From Patescibacteria group bacterium (lineage in GTDB: Bacteria > Patescibacteriota > Patescibacteriia > Patescibacteriales > JBAZCA01), in assembly GCA_041671125.1 (NCBI GenBank), contig JBAZCA010000001.1, positions 136,120 through 200,119 of the forward strand: 64,000 nucleotides of DNA. The letters are read 5' to 3'. Position numbers and translations under genes: made by a program. The notes under the pieces are model-generated. The model was not told the origin of the DNA. It did no database searches and saw only the letters and a program-made list of their open reading frames with translations. Below are positions 9,439-63,044 of this stretch, in pieces; the first letter of the stretch is position 1, and each line of letters starts with the position of its first letter.

Positions 9439-9532
9439 AACCGGGAAGGCGGTAAATGGGGTTATGTCCCATGAAACGCAAAACGCGGGGATGAATTTTT
9501 TTCCTGCAAATCGTCAATCGTAAATCTCAATG

Positions 9533-9603
9533 TCGGGGCATTGGGAATTGAACCCAAGCTACAAGACCCCCAGCCTTGCGTACTACCACTATACTATGCC
9601 CCG
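9533..9603 (-). tRNA. tRNA-Pro (GGG)
   Basis: Acceptor cggggca/tgccccg, T-arm ttggg-ttcaatt-cccaa, anticodon loop ctGGGgg with G37. Confidence 0.85.
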
Positions 9604-9695: not shown

Positions 9696-10379
9696 TCATT
9701 GCGCGCCGAGCTTTTCCCGCTCCAAATACCCGATCACTTCTTCAAAATTTTCCGCCGTGAAATCCGCCTTGTCTATCACGCTTTTCCGCCCCGCATTTTC
9801 GGTAAAAACGATGAATTTATCGGCCGCGCCGGATTCTTTCATTTCGTAATCAGTCCAGCCGTCGCCGATAGCGTATATCCCGCCTTTAAGGCCGAGCGCT
9901 TTAAGCTGTTTTATTTTTCCTCCGGTCTGGGAAAGAAAATTAGACTGGTCGTAGCCGGTGATATTCCCCTCCTTGTCAAAAATAAATGTATTAGCCCGGC
10001 AATTTTCCGGCCTGAGTCCGAGTTCGCGGGCGACGGGCATAACATAATCGTTAAAGCCGCCGGAGAAAACAAAAATATTTTCGGCGCGTTCTTTTAAATA
10101 TCCGCGGTTGCGCCAAAAAGATTCGGTAATATGGCCGCGAAGTATTGTAATGAATTCATCCAGTTCTTTTTTCCCAGCTTTCAGTATTGCCATGCGGCGT
10201 TTAAGCGATTCTCCGAAGTTTAACTTCCCTTCCATGCCGAGATTGGTGATTTCCGAAAACTCTCGCATAATTTTTTCCCGCTCCGGATTATTTTTCAGGG
10301 TCAGAAAAAATAACTCATCCAGACATTCAATCTGAACCAGGGTGCTGTCAAAATCAATAATGAGATATTTGTTCGGCAT
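9696..10379 (-). CDS. serB: Phosphoserine phosphatase (HAD superfamily)
   Basis: DFDSTL (DxDxT) nucleophile motif and a GDGWTD motif. It is the last gene of a serA-serC-serB arrangement. Confidence 0.75.
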   Translation of the reverse strand: MPNKYLIIDFDSTLVQIECLDELFFLTLKNNPEREKIMREFSEITNLGMEGKLNFGESLKRRMAILKAGKKELDEFITILRGHITESFWRNRGYLKERAENIFVFSGGFNDYVMPVARELGLRPENCRANTFIFDKEGNITGYDQSNFLSQTGGKIKQLKALGLKGGIYAIGDGWTDYEMKESGAADKFIVFTENAGRKSVIDKADFTAENFEEVIGYLEREKLGAQ

Positions 10380-10402: not shown

Positions 10403-11491
10403 CTACTGCCCGGCGATTTCATCAATCGCCTGCGTTAGTATTTTAAAATCTTCCAGAGTATGGGTCGGAAAATTCGCGAGACGAAAATGGGTTTCTTTCA
10501 TGTCTTTATAGCCTTTACCCGGAAAAATCCCTTTGGCGTTCAATTGCTTATGAAATTCTTCGCCCGTTACGCCATTCGGCAGTTTAATGCATAAAACCGA
10601 AAGCGCCCGGTATTTATCCTCTTTGGCATGGACTTCCATGCCGTTATTTTTCGCCCAGCCGTAAATGTAGTCAGCCTTTTCCCGGGTTTCTTTTTCAATC
10701 CGCTCCATGCCTTTATTTTTAAACCGCCCGGCCTGTTTCGCGAGAAGATAAATCCCTAAGACGTTCGGGGTTTCAAAAGTCTGGTCTTTCGCGCCGTACT
10801 GTTCAAGGTTAGCGATTGAGTGGACAACACCGACGTCCTTTCCCTCCTCCGCCATTTTCAGGGCTTTGGCTTTAGCCCGGTCATTAACGATTAACACCCC
10901 GAGCCCGGCCGGAAGTCCAAAACCTTTTTGCACGGAAAAAAACCAGGCGTCAGCCAGCGAAAAATTAATTTTATGGGCTCCGGCGGCGGATACGATATCT
11001 ATGGCGATCAACATCTCCGGATGTTTTTTTCTGAAAGCCTCCAGCTCATCCTCAACCAAACTAACGCCGGTAGGAGTTTCAGTATAAGTTAGGGCCGCCA
11101 GTTCAAAACCGTTGCCGTTTATTTCCTCGTTGGCGTAATTAAAACCCATGCCCGATTCCACCTCTTTCACAACCGCTTCTTTGCCGATTTTTTTTAAGGT
11201 GCTGGCGAAGCGCTTGGAAAACGAGCCAAAAACATAATGGCAGCTTTTATTTAGAACAAGATTGCGGCCGGTAATTTCCATGCATTCGCTAGCCGAAGAA
11301 ACAAAGTAAATCGTATAACCGTCCGGAATTTCTAAAAACGCTTTTAAATTTTCCCTGGCCGCCTGGAAAATCGCTAAAAAATCCTTATGGCGGTGCGAAA
11401 GCGACAAAAGGTTTTTGTCCAAAGCCTCGCGAACGTCATTTTTTACGTCTTCCGAAACGGCCGACGGACCGACATTGAAATTTAAGTACAT
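10403..11491 (-). CDS. serC: Phosphoserine aminotransferase
   Basis: NFNVGPSAVS and SHRHKDF match the SerC N-terminal motifs. Class-V aminotransferase fold. Sits between serA and serB. Confidence 0.75.
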   Translation of the reverse strand: MYLNFNVGPSAVSEDVKNDVREALDKNLLSLSHRHKDFLAIFQAARENLKAFLEIPDGYTIYFVSSASECMEITGRNLVLNKSCHYVFGSFSKRFASTLKKIGKEAVVKEVESGMGFNYANEEINGNGFELAALTYTETPTGVSLVEDELEAFRKKHPEMLIAIDIVSAAGAHKINFSLADAWFFSVQKGFGLPAGLGVLIVNDRAKAKALKMAEEGKDVGVVHSIANLEQYGAKDQTFETPNVLGIYLLAKQAGRFKNKGMERIEKETREKADYIYGWAKNNGMEVHAKEDKYRALSVLCIKLPNGVTGEEFHKQLNAKGIFPGKGYKDMKETHFRLANFPTHTLEDFKILTQAIDEIAGQ

Positions 11492-11736: not shown

Positions 11737-12678
11737 TCACATATTCACACTCCCAGCTTTTCTGCCTTCGGCCATAAACCGGCAGACTTTCTCGCTCGTT
11801 GACAGCGCGATATCAACCTGAGCTTCTTCGGTTGAAGCGCCGATATGCGGGGTTAAAATTACGTTCGGAAGACCCTGTAATTCACATTCCATTTTTTCAT
11901 CGTTAGTTTTCGGCTCATTAGCGTAAACGTCAATTGCCGCTCCGGCTAAATGCCCGGATTTTAAAGCTGAGGCCAAAGCGCTCATATCAACAACGTTTCC
12001 CCGGCTTAAATTAATTAAATAACTTCCCGGTTTCATTAAAGCGATTTTTTCCGCGTTTATTAAATTCGGGGCCGAGGCATGGAGCGATACAACGTCCGCC
12101 TCTGCTAAAAGCTCTTCCAGGGTTTTCATCTTTTTCGCCCTGCCCATTGCCAACTTATCAAAAACGTCAAAAAATATAACTTTCATGCCGAGCGCTTCGG
12201 CTAAAACCGAAAGTTGGGAGCCAATATTGCCATAACCTACTATGCCCAAAGTTTTTCCCCGGACTTCATAAGAACCTTTGGCGCTTTTTTTCCAGTCTCC
12301 GGCGTGCATCTCCCGGTTCCGGTCGCCGATTTTACGGAGCAAACTAATAATAAAACCAATAGCCAGTTCGGCCACGCTTCTCGTAGAAGAAAAAGGCGCG
12401 TTAAAAACGCAGACTCCGGCCGAAGTACAGGCGGCGAGATCCACCTTATTCAAGCCGATAACATATCCGCCGATGACTTTGAGGTTTTTTGCGGCCGCGA
12501 GAACTTCCGCGTCAATTTCAGTCTTAGAGCGGATGCCGAGCACTTCCACGTCTTTGATTTTTTCTTTAAGTTCATCTTTTGGCAGAGTGCCTTTAATTAA
12601 CTCTACCTGAAAATCGCGCTCTTCATAATACTTTTTCGCGAGCTCGCTTATACCCTCTAAAAGCAATACTTTTGGCAT
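11737..12678 (-). CDS. serA: D-3-phosphoglycerate dehydrogenase (short form, no ACT domain)
   Basis: 2-hydroxyacid dehydrogenase with GIVGYGNIGSQ NAD motif. Context is with serC and serB. Confidence 0.85.
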   Translation of the reverse strand: MPKVLLLEGISELAKKYYEERDFQVELIKGTLPKDELKEKIKDVEVLGIRSKTEIDAEVLAAAKNLKVIGGYVIGLNKVDLAACTSAGVCVFNAPFSSTRSVAELAIGFIISLLRKIGDRNREMHAGDWKKSAKGSYEVRGKTLGIVGYGNIGSQLSVLAEALGMKVIFFDVFDKLAMGRAKKMKTLEELLAEADVVSLHASAPNLINAEKIALMKPGSYLINLSRGNVVDMSALASALKSGHLAGAAIDVYANEPKTNDEKMECELQGLPNVILTPHIGASTEEAQVDIALSTSEKVCRFMAEGRKAGSVNM

Positions 12679-12722
12679 AAATTTTATGTTCGCTAATTAA
12701 TAAATGTTAAGTTTAAATTACG

Positions 12723-13054
12723 TTGTCATCTCAACCTTAGCGCAACAGAGAGTCATATTTCTTCTGTCATCCTGAGCGTAGCGAAGGATCTGCGGATGCG
12801 TTTCATATATTCACTTTTTATAACGCGCCACCGATTCTTTCTCATACTCTTCAACCTCTTTTTTATTTATCCCGTAATCCTTAAATAACCCCTCGCTTAA
12901 ATCCAGTAAATTTAAAAATGACTGCGGCAAACGACAACCATCTTTATTTAAACCCTTAGATACTTATTTACGTTCGCAGATCCTTCGTCCCGAATATTCG
13001 GGACTCAGGATGACAAAATAAAAAAGGATTTCTCTCTCGCGCTTAGAATGACAG
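12723..13054. repeat. Family C palindromic repeats (tgtcatcctgagcg...ggatgaca), composite copy
   Basis: Left arm tgtcatcctgagcgtagcgaaggatctgcg (12765-12794). Right arm cgcagatccttcg...actcaggatgaca (12974-13014). About 180 bp lies between the arms, with additional half-sites at both ends. Confidence 0.75.
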
Positions 13055-13171
13055 AAAAAGAGGATAATAAAAGACAGCCAAATTTGGAAACCGGGAGCGT
13101 TTCCATTGGTCAGAGGTAGTACAATTCACTCTGCCAATACTAGTAAGGAAACACTCCCGGAACGACGAGGA

Positions 13172-13285
13172 CTAGTCGTCTGGACATTCGTCCTCGTCAT
13201 CAGGGGGATCGTCAATAATATCCCCCTCATACTCATAACGACCCTCTTCCAGAGAGTCGCCTCTGTCATCTAGCCCGTAGCCCAT
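13172..13285 (-). CDS. Candidate 37-aa highly acidic small protein
   Basis: Own translation: MGYGLDDRGDSLEEGRYEYEGDIIDDPPDDEDECPDD. Preceded by GGAGAGGAGGTG and 7 nt, then ATG. Too short for the ORF track. Confidence 0.35.
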   Translation of the reverse strand: MGYGLDDRGDSLEEGRYEYEGDIIDDPPDDEDECPDD

Positions 13286-13422
13286 AATATCACCTCCTCT
13301 CCGCCGGAGCTACACGGCAAAAAATAAAACGAACACGAAACCAGGAACTAAACCATGATTCATATTTACTTCCCGCTTTCCTATCCACTGAACCTTTTTA
13401 AAGAACAAAATTATTAAAAATG

Positions 13423-13607
13423 GATGCGAGCATTGAAAAATTTCGGGCGTATCACGAGCGTAGAAAGTGTGCAAAATTCCACTGTTTGAGGACCCGCCGA
13501 ATCGGCGGGGACGAGTTTGGAATTTTGCTAGCTTTCATAGTGAGTGATCCGAAATTTTTCAATGCTCGCGATTTTTGCGCCACTTTTTCTAAAAAAGTGG
13601 CAAAAAT
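13423..13607 (+). repeat. Family B structured element, copy 2
   Basis: Near-identical by eye to 40121-40304. The listed ORF 13420..13713 is a translation of this repeat. Confidence 0.8.
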
Positions 13608-13630
13608 TTTAACGCAACCTTATACATCTT

Positions 13631-14524
13631 TCAACCAAATAGCGTCGTACTTAAATATTTTTCCCCTCTATCCGGAAAGATCGTTACTATGTTTCCTTTA
13701 TCAATCTTTTTAGCGATTTTTAAGGCCGCGAGCAGGGCGGCGCCGGACGACATGCCGACAAAAATTCCCTCTTCGCTAATAATCCGCCGGGACATGGCAA
13801 AGGCTTCTTCGGTGTCAATCATAATAACGTCATCCAGTTTTTCGCGATTATAAATTTCTGGGATAATCGCTTCTTCCATGTTTTTTAAACCCTGAATATA
13901 ATGGCCGCGCACCGGTTCAGCCGAGACTATTTTCACCGCCGGATTTTTCTTTTTTAAATACGCTCCGATGCCCATGAGCGTTCCCGAAGTGCCAAGGGCG
14001 GCGGTAAAATAATCAACCTTGCCATTAAGGTCGCGCCAGATTTCCCGGGCGGTAGTTTCGTAATGGGCGATCTTATTATACTCATTGGAAAACTGGTTCG
14101 GGTTAAAATACTTTTCCGGATTTTCCGCTAATAGCTCCCGGACTTTCATTATAGCCCCGTCCGTGCCTTTTGTCTTCTCCGTCAAAGTAACTTTGGCGCC
14201 AAAGGCCTTAATCATTTTAATCCGTTCAGGCGAGACCGCCGCGCTCATCACTATTTCCACGCCGTAGCCGCGCGCCGCGCCGATCATGGCGAGGGCGATT
14301 CCGGTATTGCCGGACGTCGCTTCAATAATGGTTTTACCTTTGGTTAATTTTCCCTCCTTTACGCCCTGCTCCACCATTTTCAGGGCAATCCGGTCTTTTA
14401 TGCTTCCACCCGGATTAACGCCTTCAATTTTCGCGTAAATATTCACGCCCTTTTTCGTATTCAGCTTGTTGATCTTTACCATCGGCGTCCGGCCGATTGT
14501 TTCCAGTATATTATTATAAATCAT
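13631..14524 (-). CDS. cysK: Cysteine synthase (O-acetylserine sulfhydrylase)
   Basis: IGRTPMVKINKL...NPGGSIKDRIA carries the PLP-lysine motif, plus the SGNTG loop. Confidence 0.85.
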   Translation of the reverse strand: MIYNNILETIGRTPMVKINKLNTKKGVNIYAKIEGVNPGGSIKDRIALKMVEQGVKEGKLTKGKTIIEATSGNTGIALAMIGAARGYGVEIVMSAAVSPERIKMIKAFGAKVTLTEKTKGTDGAIMKVRELLAENPEKYFNPNQFSNEYNKIAHYETTAREIWRDLNGKVDYFTAALGTSGTLMGIGAYLKKKNPAVKIVSAEPVRGHYIQGLKNMEEAIIPEIYNREKLDDVIMIDTEEAFAMSRRIISEEGIFVGMSSGAALLAALKIAKKIDKGNIVTIFPDRGEKYLSTTLFG

Positions 14525-14535
14525 ATAAATAAAAT

Positions 14536-14557
14536 CCGTCCCTTTTGAGGACGGTTT
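14536..14557 (-). terminator. Attenuator terminator 11 nt upstream of cysK ATG
   Basis: Minus strand reads CCGUCCU-CAAAA-GGGACGG followed by AUUUUAUUUAU, then ATG. Its 5' half AAACCGUCCUC can instead pair with GAGGAUGGUUU (14621-14631). Confidence 0.65.
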
Positions 14558-14600
14558 CTTTTTTACAGTCTGCTATTCATGGGATTTTTGACTTTCAGGC

Positions 14601-14699
14601 TTAGACTTTTGACTCGTGGGAAACCATCCTCAAAACCGGCTTGCTACCCGAGCCGCCGCACCCGCCTGAAAGAGACATTTTGAAGATGGATATGTTCAT
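14601..14699 (-). CDS. Candidate leader peptide, Ser/Gly/Cys-rich (32 aa)
   Basis: MNISIFKMSLSGGCGGSGSKPVLRMVSHESKV, verified codon by codon. The ATG lies 6 nt after the -10 box, so it looks leaderless. Confidence 0.55.
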   Translation of the reverse strand: MNISIFKMSLSGGCGGSGSKPVLRMVSHESKV

Positions 14700-14705
14700 A
14701 GTTAT

Positions 14706-14734
14706 ATGCTAAATAATTTTCGCCCGAGTGTCAA
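14706..14734 (-). promoter_or_regulatory. Sigma70-like promoter of the cysK leader
   Basis: Minus strand reads TTGACA (14729-14734), 17 nt spacer, TAGCAT (14706-14711), 6 nt, ATG. Confidence 0.6.
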
Positions 14735-14789
14735 TAGCGCCGAGCGTGTGAGCGAGGCGTCCCGCAGCCGTCAGGCGTGCGGGGCTGTC

Positions 14790-15410
14790 TTAAATAAGTG
14801 ATCCGAGTAAATCATCAACCGTATAACTCTTATCCATCTGCTCGTAATAATCAATCGTCGTATCCGCCAGTTTTTCGTAAAGCCCGGTCCGATAAGCTAA
14901 AAGCGCCGGATAGCATCTTTTTAGAGCCGCGACCTCTTTCTCGCCGGCCAAAGGCTTATACGCTTCACCCCAGATTATCGGCTTCGGGTTGTCAAAATAC
15001 TGTTTAATTTTTTTCTCAATTACTTCTTTCGGCGTATTAAAATAAACTACTTTGGTCAGTTTTTTCATTCTTAGGAGTAGTTCGCCGGACAGGTAAATAA
15101 CGCTCCCGGTCGTGTCAATAACAATATTTTCGCTTATTCCATTTTCCGCGGCATCCAGCGCTTCTTTTAGGTTTTTAGCTTCAAGTTCCAGATATTTCCC
15201 GCTGTTTTCCGGGCATCTCTCGTCATAAGGCTGTCCGAGCCAGCGGCTCATGTCTTTAATTCCCGAATATCCGAGTTCTTCCAGTTCCGGGCCGAGCGCT
15301 TTCTCAATCATGTCGTCAATGCCAAACCTTTTAAAGCCTTTTTCTTTTTTAAGCTTCTCCGACCAGTAAGATTTCCCTACTCCGGCCATGCCGATTAAAG
15401 AGATAAACAT
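14790..15410 (-). CDS. P-loop kinase, shikimate-kinase-like fold; function uncertain
   Basis: Walker A GMAGVGKS. DTTGSVIY aligns with the STGGGVI of shikimate kinases. It lies immediately downstream of thrC, and a separate aroK exists at 28534. Confidence 0.55.
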   Translation of the reverse strand: MFISLIGMAGVGKSYWSEKLKKEKGFKRFGIDDMIEKALGPELEELGYSGIKDMSRWLGQPYDERCPENSGKYLELEAKNLKEALDAAENGISENIVIDTTGSVIYLSGELLLRMKKLTKVVYFNTPKEVIEKKIKQYFDNPKPIIWGEAYKPLAGEKEVAALKRCYPALLAYRTGLYEKLADTTIDYYEQMDKSYTVDDLLGSLI

Positions 15411-15422
15411 AATTTTATGTAA

Positions 15423-16781
15423 TTACAAATTCCCAAGCGCTTTTTTCAACTCCTCATAATTATTTTTAATACTGATTTTCCGCTTCTCTTTCTGCTTTAG
15501 CTTTTTTATTTCTTCCGAATCATCAACGTAAATCCCGGTGTTTTCCTTAATCACGTCAGCGAACTTTAAAGGCGAGGCTGTGGAAAAAACAACTTTAGTA
15601 AGTCCGTTCTCGCCTTCCTTTTCCGCTCCGGCGAACGCCACGGCCGTGTGGGGATCAAGGAGATAATTATATTTTTCATAAACTTTTTTTATGGTTTCGG
15701 CCGTTTCCTTGTCATCCACTCTTTCCGCTTTTATCACTTTGCGGAATTCATCCGGGTTATCATGGAAAACTTTTTGGATGCGGATGAAGTTGCTCGGGTT
15801 GCCGATGTCCATGGCGTTAGAAAGGGTCGCCACCGTCGCCCGCGGCTTAAACTCTCCGGTTTCGTAATATTTTTTCGCCGCGTCATTGGCGTTGGTAACC
15901 GCTAAAAACCGGCTAAAAGGAAATCCCATTTCCCGGGCAAAAACTCCGGCGCAAAGGTTGCCGTAGTTGCCGCAAGGCACGACAAATTCCACCCCCTCTT
16001 GGTCTCCCCCTTTTAAAGGGGGAGATATTTTTTGTCCCGCCCGTTTCCTCCCTCTTTCTAAGGGGGAGGTTAGGAGGGGGTAGAGTTGCGAATAAACATA
16101 AGCGTAATAAACCATCTGCGGCAATAGCCGGCCGACGCTTATGGAATTAGCGGCCGTAAGGTTTAACGCGGCTAAATCCGGGTCATTAAACGCCTGCTTG
16201 GCGAACGCCTGGCAATCGTCAAAAACGCCTTCAACTTCAATAGTCGCAACATTCGGCTCCACCCTGGTCAACTGCTCTTCCTGCAGTTTGGAAACCATGC
16301 CCTTAGGATAAAGGATTACTACTTTCACGTTCGGAACCCCGCCAAGGCCGTGCGCCACGGCGCCGCCGGTATCACCGGAAGTGGCAACGAGAATCGTCGC
16401 GGTTTTTTTCTCTTTTTCAAGGATCCGGCTCATGAACCGCGCGAGAACCCGCGCCGCCACGTCTTTAAACGCGAGCGTCGGGCCATGAAACAATTCAAGA
16501 ACATAATAATCCCCGATCTTTATTAAAGGCAGGGGAAAATTTAAAGCCTCTTCCATCATCACCCGAAGTTCTCCCTCGCTAAAATCGTCGCCTACCCATT
16601 TTAAAAGCGTTTGCGTTGCGACCTCAGTCAAATCCTTTCCTTTTAAATTTTCCAGTTCTTCTTCGGAAAATTTCGGAAAAAATTCGGGAAAATAAAGCCC
16701 GCCGTCCGGCGCGAGGCTCTTTAACATGGCTTCTTTAAAATTAACGGCCGGTGATTTACCGTTTAAGCTAAAAAATTTCAT
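15423..16781 (-). CDS. thrC: Threonine synthase (long type) carrying an in-frame family D repeat insertion
   Basis: The N-terminus GGLYFPEFFP, HGPTLAFKD (PLP lysine) and SGDTGGA are ThrC motifs. The segment LLTSPLERGRKRAGQKISPPLKGGDQEG is encoded by the repeat at 15989-16084. Confidence 0.9.
   Translation of the reverse strand: MKFFSLNGKSPAVNFKEAMLKSLAPDGGLYFPEFFPKFSEEELENLKGKDLTEVATQTLLKWVGDDFSEGELRVMMEEALNFPLPLIKIGDYYVLELFHGPTLAFKDVAARVLARFMSRILEKEKKTATILVATSGDTGGAVAHGLGGVPNVKVVILYPKGMVSKLQEEQLTRVEPNVATIEVEGVFDDCQAFAKQAFNDPDLAALNLTAANSISVGRLLPQMVYYAYVYSQLYPLLTSPLERGRKRAGQKISPPLKGGDQEGVEFVVPCGNYGNLCAGVFAREMGFPFSRFLAVTNANDAAKKYYETGEFKPRATVATLSNAMDIGNPSNFIRIQKVFHDNPDEFRKVIKAERVDDKETAETIKKVYEKYNYLLDPHTAVAFAGAEKEGENGLTKVVFSTASPLKFADVIKENTGIYVDDSEEIKKLKQKEKRKISIKNNYEELKKALGNL
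15989..16084. repeat. Family D palindromic element inside the thrC coding sequence
   Basis: ccaccccctcttggtctcccccttttaaaggggga...tcctccctctttctaagggggaggttaggagggggtag. The reading frame is maintained. Confidence 0.8.
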
Positions 16782-16822
16782 TATTTTTAAGATGCGGTTT
16801 TAGACTGTAGAATAATCATTTT

Positions 16823-16923
16823 TGTCATCTCGACGACCGAAGGGAGGAGAGATCTAATTGCTATGAATGCTTTTTCACGGAGATTAGATTTCTCGCCCTC
16901 CTTGCGTCGGGCTCGAAATGACA
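16823..16923. repeat. Family C palindromic repeat
   Basis: tgtcatctcgacgaccgaagggaggagagatctaa...ttagatttctcgccctccttgcgtcgggctcgaaatgaca. Confidence 0.75.
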
Positions 16924-16974
16924 AAAGAGGGGTTTTTGTTGCGTTCTTCTATAGTCTAAATTTAGATAAAAAAA

Positions 16975-17391
16975 TTAACAGCTTCTTTCATCCTTCTTCA
17001 GCTTGTAATTAAAACTCTCAACAAGCGCTATCCAGCTCGCTTCTATAATATTCAATGACACGCCGATAGTCCCCCAGCGATCTTTGCCGTCGCTTGATTC
17101 AATAAAGACCCGGACTTTGGCCGCGGTCCCGTCTTTGGACGGCAGTACCCGGACTTTGTAATCAGTGAGCTTCATTTTTTTCAGCCGCGGATAGACTTTT
17201 TCAAGGGATTTCCTAAGCGCGTTGTTTAGAGCGTCAACCGGCCCGACGCCAGACGCCGTATTCCGCTCTTTATTAGCGCCAACTTTAATCCCGACTTCAG
17301 CTTCGGCCGCCGGCTCCCCCCAGTCCCTTTCTTTCTGGACTATTACCCGATAGTCCATAAGTTCAAAGAATTTTTTCTCTTTGTGAGGCAT
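16975..17391 (-). CDS. Stand-alone LeuA-type allosteric (LeuA_dimer-like) domain protein
   Basis: SGVGPVDALNNALRKSL...AAKVRVFIESSDGKDRWGTIGVSLNIIEASWIALVESF. It shares the GVGPxDA motif and following strands with the LeuA C-terminus (52332..) and the C-terminus of the 46074..47936 product. Confidence 0.65.
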   Translation of the reverse strand: MPHKEKKFFELMDYRVIVQKERDWGEPAAEAEVGIKVGANKERNTASGVGPVDALNNALRKSLEKVYPRLKKMKLTDYKVRVLPSKDGTAAKVRVFIESSDGKDRWGTIGVSLNIIEASWIALVESFNYKLKKDERSC

Positions 17392-18130: not shown

Positions 18131-18361
18131 AGTCCCTCCTTGGCGGCGCAAGAACTGCCGCCTCTTTAAAATGAAAAACAATAAATCGCCTCTACAACTC
18201 CAGCCTCTAACAAAAACATCCACGTTATAAATATCAGCGTTCTTTCCGCGTATTTATCCGCGTCAAATCCACATTATAAATAAAGGCCAAAGTAATATCT
18301 GCGATTGTTTTAAAAGAACGGCTATACTTAAATTTTTATGTTTCAGCTAATCAAAAGCATT

Positions 18362-18481
18362 TGTCATTCCCGCGGAGGCGGGAATCCAGGGTAAAAAGGA
18401 ACATCCGGCTAATTACCTTAATATTGTAATCAGCGGTATTACGTTTAACTCCTGGATTCCGGCTCGGAGGCCGGAATGACA
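18362..18481. repeat. Family C palindromic repeat (cattcc/ggaatg variant)
   Basis: tgtcattcccgcggaggcgggaatccaggg...cctggattccggctcggaggccggaatgaca. Confidence 0.75.
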
Positions 18482-18517: not shown

Positions 18518-18596
18518 TGGCTGATTATTCTTTGACTTTCTTACTTCTAACTTCTTACTTCTAACTTATTTTCGCCGCCCGCAATTAAAACCCCGG

Positions 18597-18656
18597 TCAT
18601 AATAATTCCGGTCATCATCATAATGGTCTTAATTGTGGTGGCGTTTATTCTCGTCA
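18597..18656 (-). CDS. Candidate leader peptide, Thr/Ile/Met-rich (19 aa)
   Basis: MTRINATTIKTIMMMTGII, verified codon by codon. Similar in style to E. coli ThrL ([21 protein letters not shown]). The ATG lies 6-7 nt after the -10 box. Confidence 0.6.
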
Positions 18657-18662
18657 TGTTTA

Positions 18663-18692
18663 TATTTAATCAAACACCAACGAAACTGTCAA
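18663..18692 (-). promoter_or_regulatory. Sigma70-like promoter of the Thr/Ile/Met leader
   Basis: Minus strand reads TTGACA (18687-18692), 18 nt spacer, TAAATA (18663-18668), 6 nt, ATG. Alternatively a 17 nt spacer, TTAAAT and 7 nt. Confidence 0.55.
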
Positions 18693-21930: not shown

Positions 21931-22070
21931 AAAATTAAATTTTTAATTCCTAATTTTTAATTTTTAAACAATTTCCAATGAATTAATTTCTAAATTTTTA
22001 AATTGAAAAATTCAAAATTGTTTGAAAATTAAAAATTGAAAATTGAAAATTAATAATGAATCATTAAACA
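21931..22070. repeat. Family E AT-rich long hairpin (aattttcaa/ttgaaaatt units)
   Basis: Arms aatttttaatttttaaacaatttccaatgaattaatttctaaattt and aaattgtttgaaaattaaaaattgaaaattgaaaatt. The same family occurs at 7845, 27016, 45897, 56651 and 57035. Confidence 0.7.
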
Positions 22071-22135
22071 CTCTGCTAATAATACCCGGAATGTTGAATT
22101 CAGTATATCAATTTTCCGTTAATTATCAATCCCCC

Positions 22136-22164
22136 TTGACACCAAATCGGAAAAAATGTATTAT
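22136..22164 (+). promoter_or_regulatory. Sigma70-like promoter of the aro operon leader
   Basis: TTGACA (22136-22141), 17 nt spacer, TATTAT (22159-22164). Confidence 0.55.
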
Positions 22165-22195
22165 TAAAAAAGTGAACAAAAATAATAAATAAAAT

Positions 22196-22279
22196 ATGAA
22201 ATTCGGCCAAATCTGGTTTAGCTACTTTTATTTTTACTTTACCCTTAAAACAAGGCCGGTTTTTTGCATTAATCAATAG
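22196..22279 (+). CDS. Candidate leader peptide, Trp/Phe/Tyr-rich (27 aa)
   Basis: MKFGQIWFSYFYFYFTLKTRPVFCINQ, verified codon by codon. 10 of 27 residues are aromatic, covering all three aromatic amino acids. Confidence 0.6.
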   Translation: MKFGQIWFSYFYFYFTLKTRPVFCINQ

Positions 22280-22299
22280 ATAAATAAAATAAGCAAATA

Positions 22300-22328
22300 G
22301 AACCCGGCCCAAAAGAGCCGGTTTTTTT
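22300..22328 (+). terminator. Attenuator terminator 6 nt upstream of the first aro gene
   Basis: CCGGC (22304-22308), 8 nt, GCCGG (22317-22321), then T7. CCGGCC can alternatively pair with GGCCGG at 22254-22259 inside the leader ORF. Confidence 0.5.
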
Positions 22329-22334
22329 AATTTT

Positions 22335-23126
22335 ATGGCTTCAAAAAAAGAACTCTTATCAAAAATTATCAATCCCGTTTCCGGACGGACGGTTATTGTT
22401 CCCATGGATCACGGCGTTACCGACGGACCGATTTCGGGCCTTGAAAAAATGGATGAAATCATCCGCAAAGTAAAAGAAGGCGGCGCCGACGCTATTATCA
22501 TCCACAAAGGCATTTTTAAATTATGCCGGGAAGCCATCGGCGATCTTCCGGTTCTAATCCATATCTCGGCTTCAACCGGCATGGGCGTTTCTTTAAAAAA
22601 AGTTTTAGTCGCTACAGCCCGCGAAGTTAAAAACCTCGGCGCGGCCGGAGTTTCTGTCCATTTGAATATCGGGAACGAATACGAACCGGAAATGCTCCGC
22701 GATCTCGGCATTATTTCCCGCGAATGCGAAGAGGAAGGATTGCCGCTTTTAGCCATGATGTATCCGCGCGGCATTATTGACGGCCGGATAGTCCATTACA
22801 ACGACCCCGCCCGGGTGGCGCACGCCGCCCGCCTCGCGGCCGAACTCGGAGCCGACATAGTTAAAGTCCCATACACCGGCGACGCGAAAAGTTTCGGCGA
22901 AGTGGTCAAAAGCTGTCCCGTACCGGTCGTTATCGCCGGCGGAGCCAAAGGCTCGGAAGAAGCCATGCTTTCTTCCATCCGGGATTGCGTCCGGGCCGGA
23001 GCGACCGGAGTTTCGGTCGGCCGGAACGTCTTCCAGTCCGAAGACGTCCCGGGTATGGTAAAAAAAGTCCGGGACACTGTCTATAACGCGACCCTTAATT
23101 TGTCATCTATACAGACTGTCCGATAA
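22335..23126 (+). CDS. 2-amino-3,7-dideoxy-D-threo-hept-6-ulosonate (ADH) synthase, class I aldolase family (archaeal AroA')
   Basis: DhnA/FbaB-type aldolase with IVPMDHG and the Schiff-base region ADIVKVPY. The adjacent DHQ synthase II supports the specific call. Confidence 0.8.
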   Translation: MASKKELLSKIINPVSGRTVIVPMDHGVTDGPISGLEKMDEIIRKVKEGGADAIIIHKGIFKLCREAIGDLPVLIHISASTGMGVSLKKVLVATAREVKNLGAAGVSVHLNIGNEYEPEMLRDLGIISRECEEEGLPLLAMMYPRGIIDGRIVHYNDPARVAHAARLAAELGADIVKVPYTGDAKSFGEVVKSCPVPVVIAGGAKGSEEAMLSSIRDCVRAGATGVSVGRNVFQSEDVPGMVKKVRDTVYNATLNLSSIQTVR

Positions 23127-27015: not shown

Positions 27016-27120
27016 ATCTTCAATTATCAATGATCAATTTTCAATCAATTTTCAATTAAGCAATTTTAAAATTTAGAAATTAATTCATTTAAAATTGTTT
27101 AAAAATTTAAAATTTTCCGA
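27016..27120. repeat. Family E AT-rich hairpin repeat
   Basis: caattatcaatgatcaattttcaatcaattttcaattaagcaattttaaaatttagaaattaattcatttaaaattgtttaaaaatttaaaatt. Confidence 0.65.
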
Positions 27121-27131
27121 TTTACATTTCA

Positions 27132-28430
27132 ATGTCTTCAAAATCATATAAAATTCTTCCTCTCAAACATCCAATCAGTAAAACCATCACCATGCCCGGT
27201 TCTAAGAGCCTCTCTAACCGCTGCTTAGTAATGGCGGCGTTTTCGCGCGGGCAATCCGTAATCACGGGCGCGTCCGAATCGGACGACTGCCGGATTATGG
27301 TTTCCGCGCTAAAAAAATTGGGAGTTAAAATTAAAAAAAACCGAAACCGGTTGATTGTTTTTGGTAATAACGGCGAATTCCAGCCTTTCAAAGGAAAAAT
27401 AGATGTTGGCGCGGCCGGAACCGCCGCCCGTTTTCTTCTCGCTATCTGCGCTCTGGCGCCCGGAGAAATAATCCTTGACGGGACGTATCGTATGCGGCAA
27501 AGGCCAATCGGCGAACTGGTTAACGCTTTACGAAAACTCGGAGCCGGAATCCAATACCAAAGAAAAGCTAATTGCCTGCCGGTTAAAATCAGGGGTGGAA
27601 ATCTAACCGGCCGGAAAGTCAGCCTGCCCGGAAGAATCTCAAGCCAATTTTTTACTTCCCTTCTCCTGATCGCCCCGGTTTTAAAACAAGGGATTGAAAT
27701 AAGCGTTATTGGCGGACAAATTTCTAAATCTTATATAGACATGACTTTGGACGGTTTAAAAAAACACGGGGTTAGGATAAAAAACCAGGATTATAAAAAA
27801 TACATAGTCCGGCCAGATGCTCGCTACAAACCGGGTCATTACCAAGTTGAAGGCGACGCTTCAGGCGCGAGTTATTTTTTCGCCCTGGCCGCGTTAACCA
27901 AAAACCGGATCCGGATAAAAAATATTCTGCCTGATTCTTCGCAAGGCGACGCTAAATTTCCGGATCTACTAAAACGGATGGGCGCGAAAGTAATAAAAAA
28001 CCAAAAAGAAAACTGGATTGAAGTATCCGGAACCGGCCGCTTAAAAGGCATTTCCGTTAATATGGAAAACATGCCGGATACGGCTCAGACTTTAGCGATA
28101 GTGGCCGCCTTTGCCAAAGACAAAACTAAAATCACCGGGCTTTCCACTCTAAGACATAAAGAAACCGACCGCCTTTCAGCGCTAAAGAATGAACTGAAAA
28201 AAATGGGCGTCAGGTCTGAAATTACCGCTAATTCCATAACGATTCACGGCGGGCGACCGGGCAGCGCGATAATTGATACTTATGGTGATCACCGCATGGC
28301 CATGGCTTTCGCGATCGCTGGCTCGCGGATTCCGGACTTAGCGATTAAAGACCCGGCCGTAGTGTCAAAATCATTTCCGGAATTCTGGTCACTATTAAAA
28401 AGTATTGGTGTTAAAACAACGTCATCCTGA
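27132..28430 (+). CDS. aroA: 3-phosphoshikimate 1-carboxyvinyltransferase (EPSP synthase)
   Basis: PGSKSLSNR, GAAGTAARFL and HRMAMAFAIAG motifs. The last codons ACG TCA TCC TGA lie in the family C repeat. Confidence 0.9.
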   Translation: MSSKSYKILPLKHPISKTITMPGSKSLSNRCLVMAAFSRGQSVITGASESDDCRIMVSALKKLGVKIKKNRNRLIVFGNNGEFQPFKGKIDVGAAGTAARFLLAICALAPGEIILDGTYRMRQRPIGELVNALRKLGAGIQYQRKANCLPVKIRGGNLTGRKVSLPGRISSQFFTSLLLIAPVLKQGIEISVIGGQISKSYIDMTLDGLKKHGVRIKNQDYKKYIVRPDARYKPGHYQVEGDASGASYFFALAALTKNRIRIKNILPDSSQGDAKFPDLLKRMGAKVIKNQKENWIEVSGTGRLKGISVNMENMPDTAQTLAIVAAFAKDKTKITGLSTLRHKETDRLSALKNELKKMGVRSEITANSITIHGGRPGSAIIDTYGDHRMAMAFAIAGSRIPDLAIKDPAVVSKSFPEFWSLLKSIGVKTTSS

Positions 28431-32059: not shown

Positions 32060-32330
32060 TCATTTACAGAAATAAAGTCTAGCCGGATCCCTTGGAATTC
32101 CCGAGGGACTGGGTCCGGTAGTCATGCCTGATACAGTATAGGCATGAAAGGCGGCTTTTGCGTTAGTGAAAGCCCGGCTTCCTCCGTAACCACAGGATAA
32201 CCAGTTTCCAGGCATGGAGCTGGTGAAAGCGATCCGCTTCTTCGGCGGGTAAAAAAGGTGGCACCGCGGGATAACCTCTCGTCCTTTTATCTAAATTTTA
32301 TGTTTGGATAAAAAGATGAGAGGTTTTTTT
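32060..32330 (+). promoter_or_regulatory. T-box riboswitch leader (predicted tRNA-Trp responsive)
   Basis: aaaaaaGGTGGCACCGCGGGataaCCTCTCGTCC (32251-32284) matches the conserved T-box sequence. Terminator: cctctcgtcc...gatgagagg followed by T7, ending at 32330. Candidate UGG specifier at 32093-32095 (UGGA) or 32110-32112. Confidence 0.8.
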
Positions 32331-32630
32331 AATATCTACAAATCAACGAATTTACAACAAATCTACGAATATAGAACTTACGCGTTTATGCGTAAATACC
32401 CCCTTTGTCATTCCGGAAGCCGTTTGGCTATCCGGAATCCAGGATTAGAAGCTTTAACTAAATTTTCAGGATTAAAGGCATTATTACCTTTAAACCCTGG
32501 ATTCCGGCTCTCCGTCTCGATGATTCGGGACTCCGGCCGGAATGACAAAGTGAATTTGTTGGTTAAACGCACAAGTCTTGGAATAAATAAAATTTACATA
32601 TTTGTAAATTCGTCGTTGATTTGTGGGCGC
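32331..32630. repeat. Triple-nested palindromic composite between the T-box and trpE
   Basis: Outer arms caaatcaacgaatttacaa / ttgtaaattcgtcgttgatttg. Middle arms acttacgcgttt / aaacgcacaagt. Inner family C core tgtcattccgg...ccggaatgaca. Confidence 0.75.
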
Positions 32631-44879: not shown

Positions 44880-44985
44880 GTCATTCTGAGCTGAGTGAAA
44901 CGAAGCGAAGAATCTCGTGTTAATTCCGAAAACGACGAGATCCTTCATTCCGTCCCGATGACTCGGGACTTCATTCAGGATGACA
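44880..44985. repeat. Family C palindromic repeat
   Basis: gtcattctgagctgagtgaaacgaagcgaagaatctcg...gagatccttcattccgtcccgatgactcgggacttcattcaggatgaca. Confidence 0.75.
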
Positions 44986-44996
44986 TACTAAAAATT

Positions 44997-45896
44997 TTAT
45001 ACATACGTCAGCCACTTACTGTATTTCTCGTTCTCGCCCGCCACAATTCGCATAAACTCCTCGTTCAGCTTCCCGGTAATCGCTCCGATTTTTCCGTTGG
45101 CAATTAACTGGCCGTTAATTGATCCAATCGGCGTTACCTCGGCCGCCGTGCCGGTGAAAAAGCATTCATCCGCGGCCAAAGCCTCCTCTAATAAAACTAT
45201 CCTTTCTTCTGTTTCATATCCTAAATCGCGCGCCAGTTCAATTATGGATTGTCTGGTAATCCCCGCTAAAATATTTCCCAAAAGAGGCGTAACCAGTTTG
45301 CCTTCTTTTGCCAGGAAAAAATTTTCTCCCGGCCCTTCGGCAATGTTCCCGTTAAAATCCAAAAGAAGCGCCTCGTCATAACCTTCGCTGTTAACTTGCA
45401 AAAAGGACAAAATGGAATTTACGTAATGGCCGCAGATTTTCGCGTCGGTAACTGATGACTTTGGATGGATTCGAATATAATCCGCCACTTTCACTTTTAT
45501 CGGGTCAGCGCTTAGATATTTTCCCCAGGGCCAGGCGGCGATTATAGCTTCCACCGGACAGCCTAACGGACTGATCCTTAACTCGCCGTAGCCGTAATAA
45601 ATAAGCGGCCGGATGTAGCCCTGTTTCAGTTCGTTTATCCTAACGGTCTCAATCACCGCGTTTTTAAATTCTTCTTTGGTCCAGGGCATTTTCATTTTTA
45701 TGGCTCCGGCCGAATAATAAAGCCGGTCAATATGCTCTCCCAGCCGGAAGATGACCGGCCCTTTCTCGGTTTCATACGCGCGGATGCCTTCAAAAACCCC
45801 GGAGCCGTAATGGATCGAATGGCTAAGGACATGGACTTTAACCTCTTCCCATAATTTCATCTCCCCGTTTTGCCAGATGTATTTAGTGGATTGCAT
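44997..45896 (-). CDS. ilvE: Branched-chain amino acid aminotransferase
   Basis: HYGSGVFEGIRAY, PLGCPVEAIIAAWPWG and FFTGTAAEVTPI are fold-type IV motifs. Confidence 0.9.
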   Translation of the reverse strand: MQSTKYIWQNGEMKLWEEVKVHVLSHSIHYGSGVFEGIRAYETEKGPVIFRLGEHIDRLYYSAGAIKMKMPWTKEEFKNAVIETVRINELKQGYIRPLIYYGYGELRISPLGCPVEAIIAAWPWGKYLSADPIKVKVADYIRIHPKSSVTDAKICGHYVNSILSFLQVNSEGYDEALLLDFNGNIAEGPGENFFLAKEGKLVTPLLGNILAGITRQSIIELARDLGYETEERIVLLEEALAADECFFTGTAAEVTPIGSINGQLIANGKIGAITGKLNEEFMRIVAGENEKYSKWLTYV

Positions 45897-46050
45897 AGAT
45901 AATTTTCAATTTCAAATTTTCAATTTCTAAACAATTTTCAATGAATTAATTTCTAAATTTTATTCCGAATCACCGGATTAATTAAAAATTTAAAAATTGG
46001 AAATTGTTTGAAAATTAGAAATTGAAAATTGAAAATTTTACTTGTTACTG
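45897..46050. repeat. Family E AT-rich long hairpin
   Basis: Arms ttttcaatttcaaattttcaatttctaaacaattttcaatgaattaatttctaaatttt and aaaaatttaaaaattggaaattgtttgaaaattagaaattgaaaattgaaaat. Confidence 0.7.
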
Positions 46051-46073
46051 AGTAGTAAACTTTTAATAACGAT

Positions 46074-48152: not shown

Positions 48153-48218
48153 CTAGGTGGGAATAATCAAGCTTACTACTACTACAATATCCAGGTTTTT
48201 TGGCAGTTTTTTTATCAT
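48153..48218 (-). CDS. Candidate leader peptide, Ile/Val/Leu-rich (21 aa)
   Basis: MIKKLPKNLDIVVVVSLIIPT, verified codon by codon. 11 of 21 residues are branched-chain. The ATG lies 6 nt after the -10 box. Confidence 0.7.
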   Translation of the reverse strand: MIKKLPKNLDIVVVVSLIIPT

Positions 48219-48224
48219 GTTATA

Positions 48225-48253
48225 ATTCTAAAGCTTTTCCTTATGCGTGTCAA
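48225..48253 (-). promoter_or_regulatory. Sigma70-like promoter of the ilv leader
   Basis: Minus strand reads TTGACA (48248-48253), 17 nt spacer, TAGAAT (48225-48230), 6 nt, ATG. Confidence 0.6.
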
Positions 48254-54179: not shown

Positions 54180-54269
54180 CTACGTAAAAACCGCCACCCG
54201 TCTTAAAGGCAACAAGAGCAACAAGTTTAAAAACGGTTTAATATTTAATTTTTGATTTATTTTAAACAT
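54180..54269 (-). CDS. Candidate leader peptide, Leu-rich (29 aa)
   Basis: MFKINQKLNIKPFLNLLLLLPLRRVAVFT, verified codon by codon. 8 Leu, 5 of them consecutive (TTG TTG CTC TTG TTG). Confidence 0.65.
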   Translation of the reverse strand: MFKINQKLNIKPFLNLLLLLPLRRVAVFT

Positions 54270-54283
54270 ATAAAACCGCGCGG

Positions 54284-54412
54284 CTAAGCGACTTTCAAGA
54301 TTGATTTTATTTTTCTAACGTCCTCTTCCAGCGTCTTTACCATACCCAAAACAATCTCATTTTTCTCATCAAACTTATTTAATATTTCAAGTTTTTTATT
54401 ATCCTTGTCCAT
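54284..54412 (-). CDS. Candidate 42-aa helical small ORF preceding the Leu leader
   Basis: MDKDNKKLEILNKFDEKNEIVLGMVKTLEEDVRKIKSILKVA. The ATG lies 9 nt after a consensus -10 box. Its stop is 14 nt before the Leu-leader ATG. Confidence 0.4.
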   Translation of the reverse strand: MDKDNKKLEILNKFDEKNEIVLGMVKTLEEDVRKIKSILKVA

Positions 54413-54421
54413 ATTAACTCT

Positions 54422-54450
54422 ATTATATAAGCGGAGTCAGAAGTTGTCAA
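54422..54450 (-). promoter_or_regulatory. Consensus sigma70 promoter
   Basis: Minus strand reads TTGACA (54445-54450), 17 nt spacer, TATAAT (54422-54427). Confidence 0.65.
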
Positions 54451-59779: not shown

Positions 59780-59849
59780 ACATTTTTTACCACTTATAAA
59801 CATTCCTAAATCGGCAGTTTTTACCAAAGAGAATTAATCAATTTTTATT

Positions 59850-62783: not shown

Positions 62784-63044
62784 AGCGTTGCGTCATTTTA
62801 GGCAAATTAGATTCGCTTAAAATGATATTAATTTTTACCTGGCCGGAAAACAAAAAGCTCCCCGCCAGCGATAACCATTTCTGGTCATCCATATCCCTTT
62901 CGGAATATGGCCAACCAAGGCATTCTGACGAGGAGTCATTTACCTTGGTTGGACTTTGTGCCATGCCTCAAGCATTAAAATGATTGAAGTTTAGGCTTAA
63001 ATTGTTATTCTAATATTAAAACTTTTTTAAACATTTGTAAACAT

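Follow-up and report, generated by a model that had tools for sequence, protein, structure and literature searches.

The cysK leader and its elements

The stretch of DNA analysed here (the window; 64,000 nucleotides (nt) of contig JBAZCA010000001.1, assembly GCA_041671125.1, positions 136,120 to 200,119) comes from a bacterium of the Patescibacteria group and carries, on its minus strand, a cysteine synthase gene, cysK, preceded by a compact leader. The cysK ATG lies at 14524, and the encoded protein matches the NCBIfam model TIGR01136 (cysKM) with 372 bits (cut-off 344). A protein identical to the window CysK carries the NCBI name cysteine synthase in the metagenome-assembled genome (MAG) of a Patescibacteria group bacterium, and relatives with 91% and 82% identity have also been named by NCBI from Patescibacteria MAGs. 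Upstream of cysK, a promoter-like sequence, a 32-codon short open reading frame (sORF) with a core of Ser, Gly and Cys codons, and an intrinsic terminator follow one another (Table 1). Judged from its sequence, and with a probability of about three in four, this element is a ribosome-mediated (leader-peptide) transcription attenuator that controls cysK and possibly also the serA-serC-serB genes.

Table 1. Features of the cysK leader and of the genes that follow it (window coordinates).
Feature	Position	Strand	Remarks
-35 hexamer TTGACA	14729..14734	-	Invariant in all five aligned sequences
-10 hexamer TAGCAT	14706..14711	-	17 nt after -35, 6 nt (ATAACT) before ATG
Leader sORF, 32 codons + stop, MNISIFKMSLSGGCGGSGSKPVLRMVSHESKV	14601..14699	-	ATG 14699-14697
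Presumed regulatory codons 9-19, SLSGGCGGSGS	14643..14675	-	5 Gly, 4 Ser, 1 Cys, 1 Leu
Region 1, CCAUCUUCAAAA, codons 4-7	14678..14689	-	Predicted anti-antiterminator or pause hairpin strand
Region 2, UUUUGAGGAUGGUUUC	14620..14635	-	Alternative partners: region 1 or region 3
Region 3, GAAACCGUCCUCAAAA	14543..14558	-	5' flank, 5' arm and loop of terminator
Intrinsic terminator (predicted)	14525..14554	-	Stem CCGUCCU/GGGACGG (14554-14548, 14542-14536), loop CAAAA, tail AUUUUAUUUAU (14535-14525)
cysK/cysM-family cysteine synthase, 297 aa	13631..14524	-	Pfam PALP; NCBIfam TIGR01136; first gene 3' of the putative attenuator
serA	11737-12678	-	Profile search; same strand as cysK
serC	10403-11491	-	Profile search; same strand as cysK
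serB-like HAD phosphatase	9696-10379	-	Profile search; same strand as cysK

The sORF is located 76 nt upstream of cysK, lacks a Shine-Dalgarno (SD) sequence and has its ATG at the expected transcription start, and its mRNA is predicted to be leaderless, starting on, or adjacent to, the first nucleotide of the ATG. The 64 kb contain exactly three occurrences of TTGACA-17-TWNNNT-6-ATG, against 0.00 expected, and each of them opens a leader-like sORF. Within the cysK leader, codons 11-19 (SGGCGGSGS) form nine consecutive Gly, Ser or Cys codons, against a background of 14.7% for these three residues in the long open reading frames (ORFs) of the window. When 97 fetched loci and the window (about 0.7 Mb, both strands) were screened for sORFs with at least 9 Gly, Ser or Cys residues out of 11, the sole matches were members of this leader family.

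The terminator has a G+C-rich stem of 7 bp, ending 11 nt before the cysK ATG, and its DNA tail, ATTTTATTTAT, occupies 14535-14525. This hairpin also reads as a terminator on the plus strand, and a weak match to the Thr_leader family of Rfam (19 bits, plus strand) was discarded, as it covers the hairpin only and lies on the opposite strand. Terminator-like hairpins in the surrounding 5 kb are no commoner than in shuffled sequences (9 found, 7.3 expected). The pairing of region 2 with region 3, that is, the putative antiterminator, comprises 16 contiguous pairs, one of them G.U; when the upstream leader was dinucleotide-shuffled 5000 times, no shuffle reached 16 and the longest run had 14 pairs. 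In addition, region 1 pairs with UUUUGAGGAUGG (14635-14624) over 12 contiguous pairs (p ~0.02, shuffle test), an element that adds to the antiterminator/terminator pair described before. The leader therefore displays the four classical segments: a 1:2 anti-antiterminator or pause hairpin, a 2:3 antiterminator and a 3:4 terminator. Codons 9-19 fall within the loop closed by the 1:2 helix and precede region 2 by 8-40 nt. It is important to remark that the significance of the leader derives from these specific complementarities and from the comparison with relatives, not from the presence of a hairpin or from the overall folding energy.

Most of these elements had been anticipated by an earlier inspection of the DNA (the original prediction), which described TTGACA, 17 nt, TAGCAT, 6 nt and ATG on the minus strand, an sORF at 14601-14699 whose codons 9-19 are nearly all Ser, Gly and Cys, and a terminator CCGUCCU-CAAAA-GGGACGG ending 11 nt before the cysK ATG, and all of them were found at the coordinates given there, with the terminator at 14554-14525. 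The promoter-ATG spacing that it likened to that of the ilv leader recurs in the window at both the ilv and the thr leaders, and its assignment of cysK directly downstream and of serA-serC-serB further on the same strand is backed by Pfam and NCBIfam matches. As for the antiterminator, the pairing exists, excludes the terminator and contains one G.U pair as proposed; its length, put at 11 pairs, is actually 16.

Conservation of the leader in related lineages

A search for homologous leaders upstream of cysK, another suggestion of the original prediction, revealed the same module through look-ups of the closest CysK proteins: four independent lineages carry the promoter, the sORF, both helices and the terminator, with CysK proteins 82-100% identical. 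Lineage 1 comprises the window and the near-identical loci L082, L083 and L095; lineage 2, L084 and L085 (CysK 91%); lineage 3, L086, L087 and L092 (82%); and lineage 4, L088 and L089 (82%). The homologous sORFs are MNITIFKMSLSGGCGGSGSKPVLRMVSHKSKV in L084, MNLNQVKIGSPISGGCGGSGSCIEQF in L086 and MELTISKTRLSICGGSGSGGSGCESILRMV in L088, and a good -10 hexamer is found in every lineage (TACAAT in L086, TATAAT in L088).

In the Gly/Ser/Cys core, conservation concerns the amino acids and not the nucleotides. The amino acids of SGGCGGSGS are identical in the window and L086 despite 11 differences in 27 nucleotides, which include two serine switches, TCG to AGT and AGC to TCA. Exchanges between TCN and AGY serine codons are impossible without intermediate non-serine codons. 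The core of L088 contains the same residues in another order, which suggests that it is the composition, as required for sensing, that matters rather than a specific peptide sequence. Between the window and L084, four of the six substitutions are synonymous, and the indels inside the ORF are 6 nt long, a multiple of three. No lineage lacks a Cys codon in the right position; the window and L084 have one, and L086 and L088 have two, which are non-adjacent. The C-terminus of the sORF is not conserved as protein, and the stop codon falls in every lineage within region 2 or at most 18 nt past it. For L086, whose sORF ends at TGA, a recoding of UGA (genetic code 25) was considered and ruled out, since TGA acts as a stop codon in the window genome and ends 11 of the 34 long ORFs of the window.

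Outside the core, conservation follows the RNA. The DNA motif TTTT(G/A)AGGATGGTTT, which corresponds to region 2, is kept regardless of the frame in which it is read (it supplies the TGA stop in L086 and encodes L-R-M-V in the window and L088), as is expected of an RNA pairing strand. Applied de novo to the four lineages, RNAalifold returned the 1:2 helix, with 15 pairs enclosing the Gly/Ser/Cys codons, and the terminator. The 1:2 helix shows a compensatory change from C-G to U-A in L084, both substitutions being synonymous (TTC to TTT and TTG to TTA), and the terminator shows a compensatory change from G-C to A-U in L086. Regions 2 and 3 are paired in 95.9% of the alignment cells across the five sequences, compared with 36-56% when the partner is slid, and regions 1 and 2 are paired in 90% of the cells. 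Conserved nucleotide blocks are confined to regions 1, 2 and 3 and the terminator, and no conservation is seen in the 50-66 nt that separate regions 2 and 3.

These patterns bear on two explanations in which attenuation by a translating ribosome plays no part. In one of them the sORF would encode a functional micropeptide, for example the precursor of a ribosomally synthesized and post-translationally modified peptide (RiPP) related in type to linear azol(in)e peptides or microcin B17, or else a thiol- or metal-binding peptide, and the hairpin would only set its expression ratio relative to the downstream genes. The amino-acid conservation of the core is compatible with this idea, and a composition rich in Gly, Ser and Cys resembles that of azole-peptide cores. 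However, the order of residues is permuted in L088, the C-terminus is unconserved and the DNA motif is read in different frames, RNA pairing accounts for the conservation of the N-terminal part, and the 8-12 residues that precede the core are too few for a RiPP leader. Moreover, Pfam scans of nearly all window ORFs of at least 120 aa detected no YcaO protein, cyclodehydratase, dehydrogenase, protease or exporter, the scanned ORFs corresponding to amino-acid biosynthesis and housekeeping genes, and the sister leaders of the same genome are plainly regulatory in character. A micropeptide function is thus considered very unlikely.

In the other, the leader would be an untranslated riboswitch-like RNA, or one that binds a protein or a tRNA, with an aptamer for Ser, Gly, Cys, O-acetylserine or S-adenosylmethionine and an incidental ORF. 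Terminator/antiterminator platforms are common to riboswitches, and T-boxes are used by this genome and by relatives. Nevertheless, the Rfam 15 collection gave no leader match within 14525-14740, either at the gathering threshold over the whole window or at E values up to 10 over 13500-16000; in this latter interval the T-box model RF00230 had no match at E up to 10 either, and the same search does detect the T-boxes of trpE and of the L100 locus. Furthermore, the segment between regions 1 and 2 varies as codons do, by synonymous changes and 6-nt indels, the stretch between regions 2 and 3 is variable, and the ATG has a fixed position just past the -10 hexamer in all lineages. Such an RNA appears extremely improbable.

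Beyond the four lineages, the leader was not recovered. A scan of a genome collection with CysK retrieved relatives that are at best 73% identical and scattered across many phyla, which suggests that CysK is horizontally mobile, and none of these relatives carries the Ser/Gly/Cys leader or the TTGAGGATGGTT motif. A metagenome scan with TTTTRAGGATGGTTT-N(45-75)-CCRTCCTC produced eight matches, six of which lie inside genes and were rejected as chance occurrences. Because the two real matches both come from contigs already known, the exact RNA motif seems confined to a small clade. Two further CysK relatives were set apart, one (L102, 77% identical) with no obvious leader upstream and another (P0108, 88%) that is truncated at its N-terminus.

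Predicted switching of the leader

The folding check advised in the original prediction was carried out in silico by masking nucleotides in each leader in order to mimic the ribosome. With a ribosome mask on the first Cys codon, the minimum free energy (MFE) structure of the window, L084 and L086 leaders is the 2:3 antiterminator, while a mask on the stop codon leads to the 1:2 helix and the terminator, so that the stalled and the completed states fold in the expected alternative ways. With no mask, the 1:2 helix and the terminator form in L084, L086 and L088. The central claim of the original prediction, namely that a leader peptide together with a terminator/antiterminator pair controls cysK, is supported at the level of sequence and computation by the conserved module, the alternative pairings and the masked folding. 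The leader combines a short ORF 5' of a biosynthesis gene, an enrichment in pathway codons, an intrinsic terminator, an exclusive antiterminator, a sequestering region 1 and a suitable stall geometry, the last of these being established in silico and weaker in L088.

According to this model, transcription would start at the first nucleotide of the sORF or beside it and generate a leaderless mRNA that would be translated at once. With fully charged Ser, Gly and Cys tRNAs, the ribosome would cross codons 9-19, pass region 2 and terminate translation, after which region 2 would be shielded by the ribosome or would pair again with region 1, so that the 3:4 hairpin would form and the polymerase would stop 11 nt before cysK. 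Poor charging of one of these tRNAs would stall the ribosome in the 1:2 loop and prevent region 1 from reaching region 2. The free region 2 (14635-14620) would then pair over 16 bp with region 3 once this is made, no terminator would arise and cysK would be transcribed. If the leader were not translated at all, the 1:2 and 3:4 helices would both form and result in termination. The model presumes that termination really occurs at the predicted terminator.

Control might instead be exerted mainly on translation, with the 3:4 hairpin blocking the loading of ribosomes on cysK, in place of or besides termination, and a ribosome stalled on the sORF opening this hairpin. In fact, the 3' arm of the hairpin falls within the ribosome-binding window of cysK, its U-tract is interrupted (AUUUUAUUUAU) and that of L086 is poor (UUUAGCGUUUU), and the mycobacterial polycysteine leaders offer a translational precedent (bioRxiv 10.1101/834739). 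On the other hand, cysK has no recognisable SD that could be sequestered, the hairpin scores as an intrinsic terminator and L088 has a canonical U6 tract. In L086 and L088, the Ser/Gly/Cys leader precedes a conserved ORF (2495-2902 in L086, 2323-2583 in L088) and cysK comes only after it. The two versions of this ORF share 51% identity over 70 aa, have no Pfam or NCBIfam match and possess their own exposed strong SD about 40-60 nt downstream of the hairpin, where occlusion by the hairpin is impossible. Translational control as the main mode of action is consequently judged improbable, and transcription attenuation is retained as the preferred mechanism.

Amino acids sensed, sister leaders and the biosynthesis island

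The cysK leader is not an isolated case within the window. The thr leader, likewise of the putative leaderless type (TTGACA-17-TTAAAT-6-ATG, 18547-18692, minus strand), contains at 18547-18657 the sORF MTRINATTIKTIMMMTGIIMTGVLIAGGENKLEVRS (MTRINATTIKTIMMMTGIIMTG...), in which Thr, Ile and Met abound. An antiterminator, ATTGCGGGCGGC, and a terminator, GCCGCCCGCaattgGGGCGGtattttttt, come next, and the region of thrC and a homoserine-kinase-like gene lies downstream. The ilv leader (TTGACA-17-TAGAAT-6-ATG, 48153-48253, minus strand) comprises the sORF MIKKLPKNLDIVVVVSLIIPT (48153-48218) and then the terminator CCACCaacataGGTGGtttttt, and precedes a 620-aa threonine-dehydratase-like (ilvA) protein fused to a LeuA-type regulatory domain, followed by ilvE, ilvD, ilvB and ilvC. 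A Leu-rich sORF, MFKINQKLNIKPFLNLLLLLPLRRVAVFT (…FLNLLLLLPL…, ~54180-54270, minus strand), with the terminator GCCACCtaaaaaagGGTGGCgtttt, lies upstream of leuA (52332-53942); upstream of this Leu leader there is an ORF of 42 codons whose start lies 9 nt beyond a TTGACA-17-TATAAT promoter (54410-54450). Finally, a T-box is found before trpE (32136-32289, plus strand; RF00230, 48.7 bits, E = 1.3e-9, below the gathering score of 93 and hence not reported at the default threshold). From these features, the window genome plainly appears to use leaders that sense tRNA charging. A mixed Ser/Gly/Cys leader is plausible in this context by analogy with the thr leader, whose sORF likewise combines the amino acids of one biosynthetic family (Thr/Met/Ile).

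Leaders of another kind stand before cysK in more distant relatives. Clear runs of Cys codons are present in L098 (MENIIIAKFNCCNCS, NCCNCS), L099 (MNKRIVVKNNICACSCETISRAVCCCGR, CACSC...CCC) and L047 (MRYRLTSLNCCNLLEAVSGGLCCC, NCC...CCC), in sORFs that begin just after a promoter-like site and are followed by a terminator adjoining cysK, and L100 has a T-box, about as divergent as that of trpE, instead of a leader sORF (2200-2445, 32.9 bits). These four loci belong to the same CysK subfamily (51-78% identity), and L098, L099 and L047 share with the window the order of promoter, few nucleotides, ATG, sORF and terminator directly 5' of cysK. They differ in that their sORFs, with 3-6 Cys, cannot be aligned with the window leader and in that cysK is not beside serA-serC-serB (in L098 it is followed by cysS). 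Among 78 loci, sORFs with at least three Cys in six residues were found upstream of cysK homologues in the sense orientation at six and in the antisense orientation at one. Cys-run sORFs (MKPNQCCCC, MLILSLTFACCCCC and ...SSCCCR) also lie 5' of cysK homologues in L009, L043 and L032, MAGs labelled as archaeal (Woesearchaeota, Thermoplasmatales and Aenigmatarchaeota), where mis-binning or a simpler type of attenuator might explain them; the Cys codons of L009 and L043 lie within a hairpin followed by a T-run.

The existence of such leaders raises the question of whether the window leader is a dedicated cysteine sensor, in which the Cys codon alone would matter and the Gly and Ser codons would be spacers, or a G-rich sequence kept for some other reason such as SD-like pausing or local structure. 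The identity of the controlled gene, cysK, the Cys runs and T-box of the distant relatives, and the correct placement of at least one Cys codon in every lineage speak for this view, and two Cys codons are enough in mycobacteria (bioRxiv 10.1101/834739). But the window and L084 have just one, and the second Cys of L086 is too near region 2, so that a stall there would favour the terminator. Moreover, the Ser and Gly identities have been kept through TCN-AGY switches and synonymous Gly changes, which is unexpected for spacers, serA-serC-serB lies beside cysK in this clade, unlike in the clades with Cys runs, and the thr leader of this genome is likewise of family-mixed composition. A sensor for cysteine only is therefore regarded as unlikely. 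The attenuator is instead proposed to sense Ser and Gly as well as Cys, a multivalent 'serine-family' attenuation analogous to the use of Thr and Ile in the thr leader of Escherichia coli. The original prediction had left the choice of amino acid undecided on account of the single Cys codon. The multivalent proposal is favoured by the selection acting on the Ser and Gly identities, by the presence of only one Cys codon and by the linkage of cysK to serA-serC-serB, which occurs in this clade alone.

Several observations weigh against the attenuator as proposed. Regarding the amino acids sensed, the window sORF has a single Cys codon, the downstream genes do not yield glycine directly and are linked to it only via serine, and neither glyA nor cysE was seen in Pfam scans of the window ORFs. 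The extension to serA-serC-serB would require that these genes share one transcript with cysK across a gap of 950 nt. With regard to the leaderless start, the -10 hexamer and the ATG are separated by 9 nt in L086 and 14 nt in L088, so that 'leaderless' is not strict there. At the RNA level, the overall folding energy of the window leader is ordinary (z = -1.0), and in its unconstrained MFE structure the 1:2 helix is replaced by a 9-bp helix between 14672-14664 and 14600-14592. This alternative is specific to the window lineage, and the four-region model came solely from the relatives and the constraint folding, not from the plain MFE of the window. Covariation among the four lineages is thin: most pairs are invariant and each helix shows a single compensatory exchange. 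For L088, the most stable predicted fold contains the terminator even when a ribosome is stalled, and switching there would need a kinetic argument, based on the synthesis of region 3 before region 4.

As for known systems, the mechanism is a textbook one of the trp/thr/ilv type; what is new is the set of amino acids, the predicted leaderless design and the Patescibacteria host, a member of the candidate phyla radiation (CPR). In enterobacteria, the thr operon leader contains Thr and Ile codons and the ilvGMEDA leader Ile, Val and Leu codons, and the trp leader is the mechanistic archetype. Like these, the cysK leader has a short ORF rich in codons for two or more related amino acids of the pathway, three mutually exclusive pairings (1:2, 2:3 and 3:4) and an intrinsic terminator immediately 5' of the first structural gene. 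In contrast to them, its sORF lacks an SD and starts at the predicted transcription start, and its regulatory codons are placed in the loop between regions 1 and 2 and not inside region 1; there is no sequence similarity, and the host is a member of the Patescibacteria. Most documented cases of leader-peptide attenuation come from Proteobacteria and Actinobacteria and concern Trp, His, Phe, Leu, Thr, Ile/Val and, of late, Cys. The Ser/Gly/Cys set is not known from any leader described so far, and full-text searches of the open-access literature retrieved no Ser/Gly leader peptides or Patescibacteria attenuators. To our knowledge, gene regulation in Patescibacteria/CPR is almost uncharted, amino-acid biosynthesis is usually absent and the phylum is regarded as largely auxotrophic.

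Cysteine leaders have been described elsewhere. The leaderless polycysteine sORFs of mycobacteria (the 'Cys ribulon' of Canestrari et al.) were shown to act translationally, the case studied there doing so by unmasking the SD of the next gene (bioRxiv 10.1101/834739), and actinobacterial cys leader peptides were predicted by Seliverstov et al. without a conserved terminator (PMC1262725). The cysK leader resembles these in its predicted leaderless or nearly leaderless sORF as first cistron of a cysteine-biosynthesis transcript and in the proposal that a ribosome stalled at end-product codons relieves repression. The 6-nt distance from the -10 hexamer to the ATG would fit a leaderless start such as that of the mycobacterial class, and the longer distances of L086 and L088 would fit it less well. 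However, the mycobacterial elements contain runs of at least two consecutive Cys codons, whereas the cysK leader has one Cys among Ser and Gly together with a terminator/antiterminator pair. Membership in the polycysteine class was ruled out on account of the lack of consecutive Cys codons and of an SD before cysK to sequester. The uORFC-8-2 motif, located 5' of cysS in Rhodobacterales, combines a Cys-codon upstream ORF, stems and a U-run and was interpreted as ribosome-mediated attenuation (Brewer et al. 2021, PMC8632094); it differs from the cysK leader in its tandem Cys codons, its target gene, its phylum and the absence of Ser/Gly enrichment, and the two have no sequence relationship.

If the Ser/Gly/Cys reading is true, the leader repertoire would extend to the serine family, one short ORF would integrate three metabolically linked amino acids and ribosome-based regulation would be documented in Patescibacteria/CPR. 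A more far-reaching proposal, which we advance tentatively and hold to be somewhat doubtful, is that this leader is the first leader-peptide attenuator to read the whole serine family and one of a 'family-wise' leaderless set (Ser/Gly/Cys, Thr/Met/Ile, Ile/Val and Leu) that, together with the Trp T-box, coordinates a compact and possibly mobile biosynthesis island as a ribosome-run regulon in a CPR bacterium. At the practical level, such leaders may serve as annotation markers that flag truly biosynthetic operons and the amino acid served, and a 45-kb island with four leaders and a T-box would constitute a compact system for heterologous testing.

The window is indeed an island of amino-acid biosynthesis, with ser and cys genes, thrC and a homoserine-kinase-like gene, ilvA-E-D-B-C, leuA, leuCD-like and leuB genes, an archaeal-type shikimate pathway, pheA, tyrA and trpEGDCFBA. 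A tRNA-Pro(GGG) at 9532-9603 bounds it on one side and a large serine recombinase at 58148-59827, with Resolvase, Recombinase and Zn-ribbon domains, on the other, an arrangement that may denote a mobile island. A stand-alone 138-aa protein (16975-17391, minus strand) corresponds to the C-terminal regulatory domain of LeuA/citramalate synthase alone, and L086 and L088 have a full-length synthase of 524-530 aa in its place.

The block of serA, serC and the serB-like gene starts 950 nt beyond cysK, with small ORFs, repeats and a conserved hairpin in between. Just past the cysK stop (~13330-13400) there is a conserved non-coding motif, AGTGgAtAGGAAAGCGG...TTTAGTT..GGTTTC, 5' of a very acidic small ORF with a strong SD (MGYGLDDRGDSLEEGRYEYEGDIIDDPPDDEDECPDD; 13172-13285, minus strand) that has counterparts in L086 and L088. 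Directly 5' of serA, a long conserved hairpin is followed by (C/T)TCC(A/T)AA(A/T)TT (13081-13170, minus strand). Hairpins of this serA type lie at ~2905-2975 and 4370-4450 in L086 and at ~2905-2975 and 4375-4450 in L088, a second copy standing directly 5' of cysK in both of these loci.

Palindromic repeats resembling miniature inverted-repeat transposable elements or repetitive extragenic palindromes (tgtcattccgg...ccggaatgaca or gtcatcctgag...ctcaggatgac) occupy many intergenic regions of the window, including 16800-16950, 18350-18480, 32370-32560, 44880-44990 and 12720-12960. A LOOT RNA (RF03000, 79.5 bits) is located at 62870-62997 on the minus strand, and AT-rich palindromes, ttttcaattttcaatt...aattgaaaattgaaaa, occur 5' of several genes (45896-46080, 21931-22340 and 27016-27140).

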